DNA from: Escherichia coli
Lineage (GTDB): Bacteria; Pseudomonadota; Gammaproteobacteria; Enterobacterales; Enterobacteriaceae
Assembly: GCF_024298765.1 (NCBI RefSeq)
Contig: NZ_CP101210.1
Length of the DNA stretch: 64,000 bases
Direction: 5' to 3' (one strand)
The notes below the pieces were generated by a model. The model was given only the letters and a program-made list of their open reading frames with translations, ran no database searches and had not been told where the DNA came from. Within the stretch, counting starts at the first letter, position 1, and every line of letters starts with the position of its first letter. The translations under genes were made by a program, and so were the position numbers. This document shows, piece by piece, positions 5,888 to 6,960 of this stretch.

Positions 5888-6033
5888 ATTTCGCATATGC
5901 TTACAAGGCTCTATTACCAGCCGCACCTGACACAGCTTCGGTTTGTTGCCAGCAAATCAAAGGTGTACATAGAATGAGCAGATATGAATCCACATCCCAC
6001 TTATTCTATCGCAGTCAAGGTAATGACTCCAAC

Positions 6034-6537
6034 TTATTGATAGTGTTTTATGTTCAGATAATGCCCGATGACTTTGTCATGCAGCTCCACCGATTTTGAG
6101 AACGACAGCGACTTCCGTCCCAGCCGTGCCAGGTGCTGCCTCAGATTCAGGTTATGCCGCTCAATTCGCTGCGTATATCGCTTGCTGATTACGTGCAGCT
6201 TTCCCTTCAGGCGTGATTCATACAGCGGCCAGCCATCCGTCATCTATACCACGACCTCAAAGGCCGACAGCAGGCTCAGAAGACGCTCCAGTGTGGCCAG
6301 AGTGCGTTCACCGAAGACGTGCGCCACAACCGTCCTCCGTATCCTGTCATACGCGTAAAACAGCCAGCGCTGACGTGATTTAGCACCGACGTAGCCCCAC
6401 TGTTCGTCCATTTCAGCGCAGACAATCACATCACTGCCCGGTTGTATGCGCGAGGTTACCGACTGCGGCCTGAGTTTTTTAAGTGACGTAAAACCGTGTT
6501 GAGGCCAACGCCCATAATGCGTGCACTGGCGCGACAT
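6034..6537 (-). pseudogene. insB: IS1 insB interrupted by an in-frame TAG
   Basis: ORFs 6244..6537 and 6034..6243 are contiguous in one frame (...[20 protein letters not shown]...); canonical InsB reads through with Trp at this position as recalled. Confidence 0.6.
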
Positions 6538-6731
6538 CCGACGCCATTCATGGCCATATCAATGATTTTCTGGTGCGTACCGGGCTGAGAGGCGGTGTAA
6601 GTGAACTGTAGTTGCCATGTTTTACGGCAATGAGAGCAGAGATAGCGCTGATGTCCGGCAGTGCTTTTGCCGTTACGCACCACGCCTTCAGTAGCGGAGC
6701 AGGAAGGACATCTGATGGAAATGGAAGCCAC
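6456..6731 (-). CDS. insA: IS1 InsA (zinc-finger transposition regulator)
   Basis: 91 aa [40 protein letters not shown]... near-identical to IS1 InsA with a few substitutions. Confidence 0.9.
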
Positions 6732-6960
6732 GCAAGCACCTTAAAATCACCATCATACACTAAATCAGTAAGTTGGCAGCATTACCGAAATCCCCATCCT
6801 TTAGGGCAGTGAGGATGTCAATAATAGCAGACCACATCATGAGTCATTCTGACCGACACATGCCAGAAGCAGAGGCTCCATCCCATTTTATACCTACCTT
6901 ATAACACTTAGAAAAACAACATGTTAAAAATGTCTATTGGAAACAATTTTATTTCCAATT

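Follow-up and report, generated by a model that had tools for sequence, protein, structure and literature searches.

The IS1 copy described here lies in a 64-kb stretch of Escherichia coli chromosome, hereafter the window, where it separates an hlyE-like gene from the fec genes. It is a complete element of 768 bp on the minus strand, with exactly the boundaries assigned to it in a preliminary description made from the DNA letters alone, and it is the sole IS1 copy in the window (Table 1). Its assignment to the IS1 family, whose members are ~768 bp long and have ~23-bp repeats starting GGTRATG, follows from its length, from its imperfect 23-nt inverted repeats (the IRL and IRR arms are 83% complementary), from the Pfam matches of its insA product (Zn_ribbon_InsA, E 9.5e-20; HTH_Tnp_IS1, E 1.1e-27) and from an A6C frameshift motif that lies in the same register as in IS1A (TTAAAAAAC, element 305-313, with the heptamer at 307-313). 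Over a gapless alignment of the 768 bp, the identity of the element is 97.7% with K-12 IS1F and 92.8% with IS1A. The insA frame, which had been described as intact, is indeed open throughout, and its product differs from that of K-12 IS1A at five residues (V4I, S7R, D15E, T69S and I80V). These differences bear out the suggestion that we are dealing with a sequence variant of IS1, but the contrast originally drawn with a "K-12 type" does not hold, since the variant is an isoform that K-12 itself possesses, namely IS1F, at the orthologous site.

Table 1. Features of the window IS1 and its immediate flanks (window positions; element positions are counted from the IRL end)
Feature	Position	Strand	Remarks
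IS1 element, IS1F/IS1A mosaic	6019..6786	-	IRL end (6786) faces ykiE-fecI; IRR end (6019) faces the hlyE-like gene
IRL, IS1F type (GGTAATGCTGCC...)	6764..6786	-	Same as K-12 IS1F IRL; mismatch to IS1A at element position 4
IRR, IS1A type	6019..6041	-	IS1A base, not IS1F base, at element position 750
insA, intact, 91 aa, Zn-ribbon + HTH; IS1 repressor/transposition inhibitor	6456..6731	-	Pfam
A6C -1 programmed frameshift motif, intact	6474..6480	-	AAAAAAC on the minus strand
insB frame, whole	6034..6537	-	Split by TAG at 6244-6246
insB frame, upstream part (InsB codons 1-97)	6247..6537	-	First half of DDE_Tnp_IS1 (Pfam profile positions 1-61 of 131)
Amber TAG for TGG (Trp); InsB codon 98, InsAB' codon 163	6244..6246	-	Gapless alignment with IS1A
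insB frame, downstream part (69 codons from the native ATG right after TAG, then TAA)	6034..6243	-	Profile positions 63-131 of 131
IS1F-type segment, element 1-573	6214..6786	-	Differences: 2 from K-12 IS1F, 55 from IS1A, 0 from L017/L020
Crossover interval, element 574-596	6191..6213	-	IS1F and IS1A identical here
IS1A-type segment, element 597-768	6019..6190	-	Differences: 0 from IS1A, 16 from IS1F
ykiE small ORF	6818..6886	-	Within the conserved 236-bp spacer between IS1 IRL and fecI
fecI, first gene of fecIR-fecABCDE	7023..7544	+	Anchors the orthologous locus
Divergent hlyE paralogue, IRR-side flank	4899..5783	+	Marks the rare arrangement

The defining defect of this copy is the amber codon that splits its insB frame. 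The preliminary description had placed this stop at a Trp of functional IS1, and alignment with IS1A agrees: the IS1A codon is TGG, for the Trp of ...VVIWMTDGW..., which is residue 163 of the 232-residue InsAB' transposase. The -1 frameshift product of the window copy ends at residue 162 and therefore comprises Zn_ribbon_InsA, HTH_Tnp_IS1 and positions 1-61 of the 131 in the DDE_Tnp_IS1 profile (Pfam). Because the stop falls inside the catalytic domain and leaves half of it, the copy makes no transposase and is non-autonomous, as the preliminary description had concluded for InsAB'. We take the second Asp of the DDE triad to be that of MTDGW and its Glu to be that of RIERHN; both lie downstream of the TAG. 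In short, full-length InsAB' is not encodable by the window IS1, while the DNA-binding half and insA are intact; with no uninterrupted InsAB' and no complete DDE_Tnp_IS1 domain, the copy is a defective (pseudogene) member of its family. In strain 104, which is near-identical, PGAP gives the corresponding copy the label "programmed frameshift; internal stop".

Two comparisons help to place the element. It resembles IS1A and IS1E, the "consensus" active K-12 IS1, in length, organisation, A6C motif and inverted-repeat architecture, and its last 172 bp are identical to theirs, but unlike IS1A, whose InsAB' is intact at 232 aa with a full DDE domain, it yields a product that stops after residue 162. 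Like mini-IS1 constructs and MITE-like derivatives, non-autonomous elements that are mobilised in trans, it has ends of functional types without a transposase of its own, but unlike them it has kept its full length and an intact insA.

The copy has a direct counterpart in K-12. There, IS1F occupies NC_000913.3 4518472-4519239, with insA7 (b4294) intact and insB7 (b4576) annotated as a pseudogene. The ykiE-fecI junction and the 236-bp spacer are identical in the two genomes, as are the IRL and the amber at InsB codon 98; with this amber codon and the orthologous IRL-ykiE-fecI position, the window copy has two hallmarks of isoform IS1F. It departs from its K-12 counterpart within InsA, where K-12 has P34/K52 and the window copy H34/T52 (a variant it has in common with two other fec-linked copies, L017 and L020), and in its distal flank, which is yjhU in K-12 but the island with the hlyE paralogue in the window. 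The window IS1 is, then, the known transposase-dead IS1F beside the fec genes, already annotated as a pseudogene in K-12. The preliminary description had allowed that its reading would fall if reference IS1 variants carried a stop at this point and were read through. K-12 IS1F does have the stop, but there is no evidence of read-through, which makes the finding known rather than wrong.

How widespread is the TAG? A 1.4-kb chromosomal stretch that starts at the hlyE-like gene, crosses IS1 and reaches fecI recurs with 100% identity in 13-14 other complete E. coli genomes. For the codon itself, we used an 81-nt probe placed where IS1A-type copies cannot seed, in two versions that differ only at the G/A of the codon. 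The exact stretch with TAG was the best match in 2,304 E. coli records, K-12 MG1655 included, and the version repaired to TGG was exact in 2,910 records, of both chromosomes and plasmids, which leads us to regard TAG as the derived state. The IRL-fecI junction (871-nt probe, at least 80% covered) was present in 2,566 of 5,426 genomes. The linkage of TAG to fec was counted from these two separate probes together with seven sampled loci and an eighth that is the same hybrid as ours. All seven fec-linked copies examined (the window, K-12, L011, L017, L018, L019 and L020) have the TAG; the eighth, L006 of strain CT30, is interrupted by ISEc12, and since both of its pieces are 100% identical to the window copy, the TAG is present there too. 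These matches show that the TAG allele is inherited and is carried by roughly 40-47% of complete E. coli genomes; for the fec-linked copy it is an allele both old and derived, not a private mutation.

Decay has gone further at some of these loci: L011 has two in-frame deletions, of 9 bp and 6 bp. An independent extra lesion is seen in L019 (E. coli O111:H11 88-19539), which is likewise fec-linked and has the TAG; here element position 313 is mutated, turning A6C into A7 and giving InsA N86K.

Outside E. coli, the TAG allele is essentially absent. When 100,044 species-representative genomes were scanned for an exact 33-mer, the sole match was a 547-bp Archangium contig. This contig (A. violaceum Cb vi76, NZ_JPMI01000182.1, our L016) is 100% identical to K-12 IS1F plus its yjhU-side flank. 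We considered it as a case of spread to another species and rejected it, as K-12 DNA has almost certainly contaminated the draft assembly of this myxobacterium.

The isoform alignment that the preliminary description had proposed as a check, run without gaps against both IS1A and K-12 IS1F, confirms the variant and also shows it to be composite. IS1F and IS1A are told apart by 73 diagnostic sites (the number also given in PMC12428005). Within element 1-573, 55 of 57 such sites have the F-type base in the window copy, the exceptions being 156 and 210, which are polymorphic among fec-linked copies; within element 597-768, the copy is F-type at none of 16 and A-type at all of them. It is thus not nearly identical to K-12 IS1F over its whole length, with 18 differences of which 16 are clustered in 597-768, and by the diagnostic sites only element 1-573 would qualify as isoform IS1F (the type IV IS1 of K-12). 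The interval in which the exchange took place lies some 30-55 bp downstream of the TAG (Table 1).

The flanks of the element suggest how this mosaic arose. No 8-9-bp target-site duplication was found at the window IS1 (the flanks read CGCAGTCAA vs GAAATCCCC), which is as expected for a recombination joint. The flank on the IRL side is constant across genomes (GATGGGGATTTC). On the IRR side, at least three different flanks are seen: yjhU (K-12), a common type with TCCTCCCGAACT, and the hlyE-paralogue island of the window. The paralogue that gives this island its name encodes a pore-forming toxin of the ClyA family, which has 77% protein identity to K-12 HlyE and matches Pfam HlyE over its full length; a strong hairpin terminator lies just behind the gene. 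Of the 5,426 complete E. coli genomes, 20 carry the paralogue, many of them avian/APEC, and it always abuts the hybrid IS1. The exact TAG-bearing hybrid, in turn, was found in 20 records, and they are the same 20; two of these copies have changed since, being truncated in B771 and split by ISEc12 in CT30. The confinement of the hybrid to the genomes with the paralogue marks the mosaic as a recombination joint. The simplest reading is that a single homologous exchange between the resident IS1F with its TAG and a copy of IS1A type brought fec and the hlyE-paralogue island together, and it is this F/A mosaic, marking a lineage-specific island junction, that is the new detail in the copy described here. 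No parental IS1A-type copy adjoining the hlyE paralogue was found among the genomes searched.

We also considered two other rearrangements and rejected both. For an inversion between two IS1 copies, a 221-nt probe for the reciprocal A-left/F-right product was exact in four unrelated genomes and in 0 of the 20 hybrid carriers. For a composite transposon made of the hybrid and the IS1A-type copy of strain 104, the outer 9-bp flanks do not match, and neither copy has a target-site duplication.

The second IS1 copy of strain 104 deserves a brief description. It is an intact IS1A-type element (L015 11785-12552) with two differences from IS1A, some 500 bp past the position of the window's right end. 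It lies ~56 kb downstream of the hybrid and in direct orientation to it, beside a tyrosine integrase gene, and lacks a target-site duplication. The ~56 kb between the two (with fec, pgt, PTS/transketolase and autotransporter genes) should be deletion-prone.

Putting these observations together, we consider it very probable that the window IS1 is the orthologue of K-12 IS1F, with an inherited TAG, that it is non-autonomous, and that it was later joined to the hlyE island by recombination with an IS1A-type copy. The history that we propose runs as follows. The K-12 IS1F orthologue would be an old IS1 copy bounding the fecIRABCDE module, and the change from TGG to TAG at InsAB' codon 163 would have been inherited, not newly acquired. 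With insA, the frameshift motif and both repeats intact, InsA could still be encoded, and InsAB' supplied by other IS1 copies could act on the element, which would also offer 768 bp of homology. Homologous recombination with an IS1A-type copy, with the exchange falling within element 574-596, would then have replaced the distal 172 bp, and probably the same event linked the fec module to the island with the rare hlyE paralogue. Such an event would explain at once the mosaic sequence, the absent target-site duplication and the lineage-specific distal flank.

The alternative that survives best is non-reciprocal gene conversion from an IS1A-type copy, with no rearrangement, the junction with the hlyE island being older or unrelated. 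Patchy IS1 isoforms are indeed widespread, one example being an IS1A-type copy in strain TUM14664 that has acquired an F-type patch and still has its duplication intact; sites 156, 210 and 542 occur in all combinations among copies; the reciprocal A/F hybrid is missing from all 20 genomes; and a copy of IS1A type lies ~56 kb away in strain 104. Against conversion, the A-type tract runs unbroken to the end of the element and there coincides exactly with the lineage-specific flank, and hybrid and hlyE flank are found together in 20 of 20 cases, for which a single crossover is the simplest account. We therefore regard conversion as unlikely, if the most serious of the competing explanations, and retain recombination between IS1F and an IS1A-type copy as our reading.

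The other IS1 copies that we compared add to the picture of isoform diversity. The copy in TUM14664 (L009 1022-1789) has an IS1A backbone with an IS1F-type patch at about element 462-573, TGG at the codon in question and a perfect 9-bp duplication (AGCTTTCTA). The TUM14664 record has at least 40 places with IS1, and its L009 copy is one base off the window's 221-nt hybrid probe; L009 is an actively expanding mosaic isoform. In E. coli strain 140, L012 (1290-2057) is purely IS1F-type with TGG intact and has InsA P34/K52 as in K-12. Such intact IS1F-type/IS1X2-type isoforms are IS1F-type around the site of the lesion, but they encode a full-length transposase, are annotated as intact and are not linked to fec. 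TAG copies elsewhere carry H34/T52 or H34/K52, and when L012 is included, sites 156, 210 and 542 are seen in all combinations, a pattern that would imply recombination among copies or reversion. Automated IS typing calls sister copies of the hybrid IS1X2.

Published experiments with K-12 bear directly on whether such an element can move. In BW25113, IS1F is natively immobile, and no IS1 insertions were obtained from a strain in which IS1B, C, D and F were the only copies left, in a study that also re-sequenced the six K-12 IS1 copies (PMC12428005). When InsAB' was overproduced in trans, K-12 IS1F, which has pure IS1F ends, accounted for 44% of 48 sequenced insertions and was the top non-consensus copy (PMC12903888). 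The two papers, both from 2025, put the immobility of IS1F down to amino-acid substitutions or context (PMC12428005, PMC12903888). A search of their text for stop, nonsense or pseudogene wording found no mention of the nonsense codon in insB, which is the simplest explanation of IS1F immobility.

For the window copy, both ends belong to types that are functional individually. These ends are intact, and sister genomes have intact IS1A-type copies. By analogy with K-12 IS1F, intact IS1 copies resident in the genome could in principle mobilise the window copy, if only at low frequency. The preliminary description had called it probably immobile, which is right for autonomous movement, InsAB' being truncated, but does not extend to movement in trans, as K-12 IS1F has been mobilised in this way (PMC12903888). 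Its further statement that the copy can act only as a recombination substrate fits the F/A mosaic without a target-site duplication, but is too strong in view of that same mobilisation and of the TAG copies found away from fec. We infer that the window copy acts mainly as portable homology.

As to the copies away from fec, one and the same full-length TAG-bearing IS1F sequence is found, at different sites, on plasmids of E. coli (IncK2/Z) and of Enterobacter (IncF mcr-10), and another TAG copy lies between brnT and mdtM on the chromosome of strain LD27-1. More broadly, the exact TAG allele is present on at least 27 plasmid records among the best 5,000 matches listed. The non-fec copies document relocation, but they give no support to natural transposition as its cause: the three copies (two on plasmids, one on a chromosome) are full length, and 0 of 3 have a target-site duplication.

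An intact insA raises a different kind of question, namely whether the copy has been kept for InsA's sake. InsA is well established as a repressor that acts in trans on the IS1 promoter and also inhibits transposition (general knowledge, with a summary in PMC12428005), and judging from its open frame the window copy may express it. The idea that the element has been retained for InsA alone, as a domesticated repressor damping other IS1 copies in trans, draws on this established activity, on insA being open in every TAG-bearing copy examined and on the age and wide distribution of the TAG allele. We nonetheless think it improbable. In a very small sample of TAG copies, the changes in insA are five nonsynonymous (156, 198, 210, 276 and 313) to one synonymous (322), which gives no sign of purifying selection, and linkage to the selected fec operon is a simpler account of persistence. 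No better are the prospects of a broader proposal, in which the amber fec-linked IS1F has been kept both as an InsA-only damper acting in trans and as a preferred handle for shuffling fec among islands and plasmids; this, too, we hold to be a long shot.

Even less probable, in our view, is that the stop is bypassed, whether by amber suppression, by read-through or by reinitiation at TAG-ATG with halves that reassemble, and that the copy is autonomous with a functional transposase. The layout of the frame would lend itself to this, in that a native in-frame ATG directly follows the TAG, the 69-codon ORF behind it is open and its product still matches the remainder of the DDE_Tnp_IS1 profile. 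Set against it are the K-12 strain with IS1B, C, D and F, which yielded no IS1 insertions (PMC12428005), the extra lesions that accumulate in fec-linked copies, and the TGG found in active sister copies with a target-site duplication. A search of the window for a suppressor tRNA or a structured RNA returned no tRNA gene and no Rfam match. Finally, a sequencing or assembly error in an IS1 that is really intact, which the preliminary description had named as a possible refutation, has nothing beyond the general possibility to speak for it and is not upheld: with the identical 1.4-kb locus in 13-14 more complete genomes, the TAG hybrid exact in 20 independent assemblies and the TAG 81-mer matched exactly by 2,304 records, the K-12 reference among them, it is practically out of the question.

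What, then, is gained from describing a dead transposon? As a defective IS copy, it is a textbook case, already a pseudogene in the K-12 reference and in PGAP annotation, and as such it matters little. Three modest points are of use. For the K-12 literature discussed above, the nonsense codon is the simplest explanation of an immobility that has been put down to other causes. The locus itself, with an IRL side fixed to fec and an IRR side that is variable and sometimes chimeric, offers a clear case from nature of an inactive IS that works as a recombination joint, by which an iron-uptake operon is moved from one island to another. It also illustrates that automated IS typing will misname such mosaics.

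Several other features of the window came to light along the way. Positions 52544-55242 hold a 2.7-kb element of the IS66 family with minus-strand ORFs of 225, 115 and 523 aa; it is missing from strain 104, which is otherwise 99.98-100% identical, and is therefore a recent strain-specific insertion. A module of ~1.4 kb is duplicated in direct orientation (53-1459 vs 27143-28603, 89-93% identity); it consists of a YagK/YfjJ-domain gene and a ProQ/FinO-family gene, both of which are frameshifted in the second copy. Downstream of fec, in the same IS-riddled island, positions 20808-27031 carry the pgtP-pgtCBA cluster for phosphoglycerate transport and its regulation, which is best known from Salmonella.
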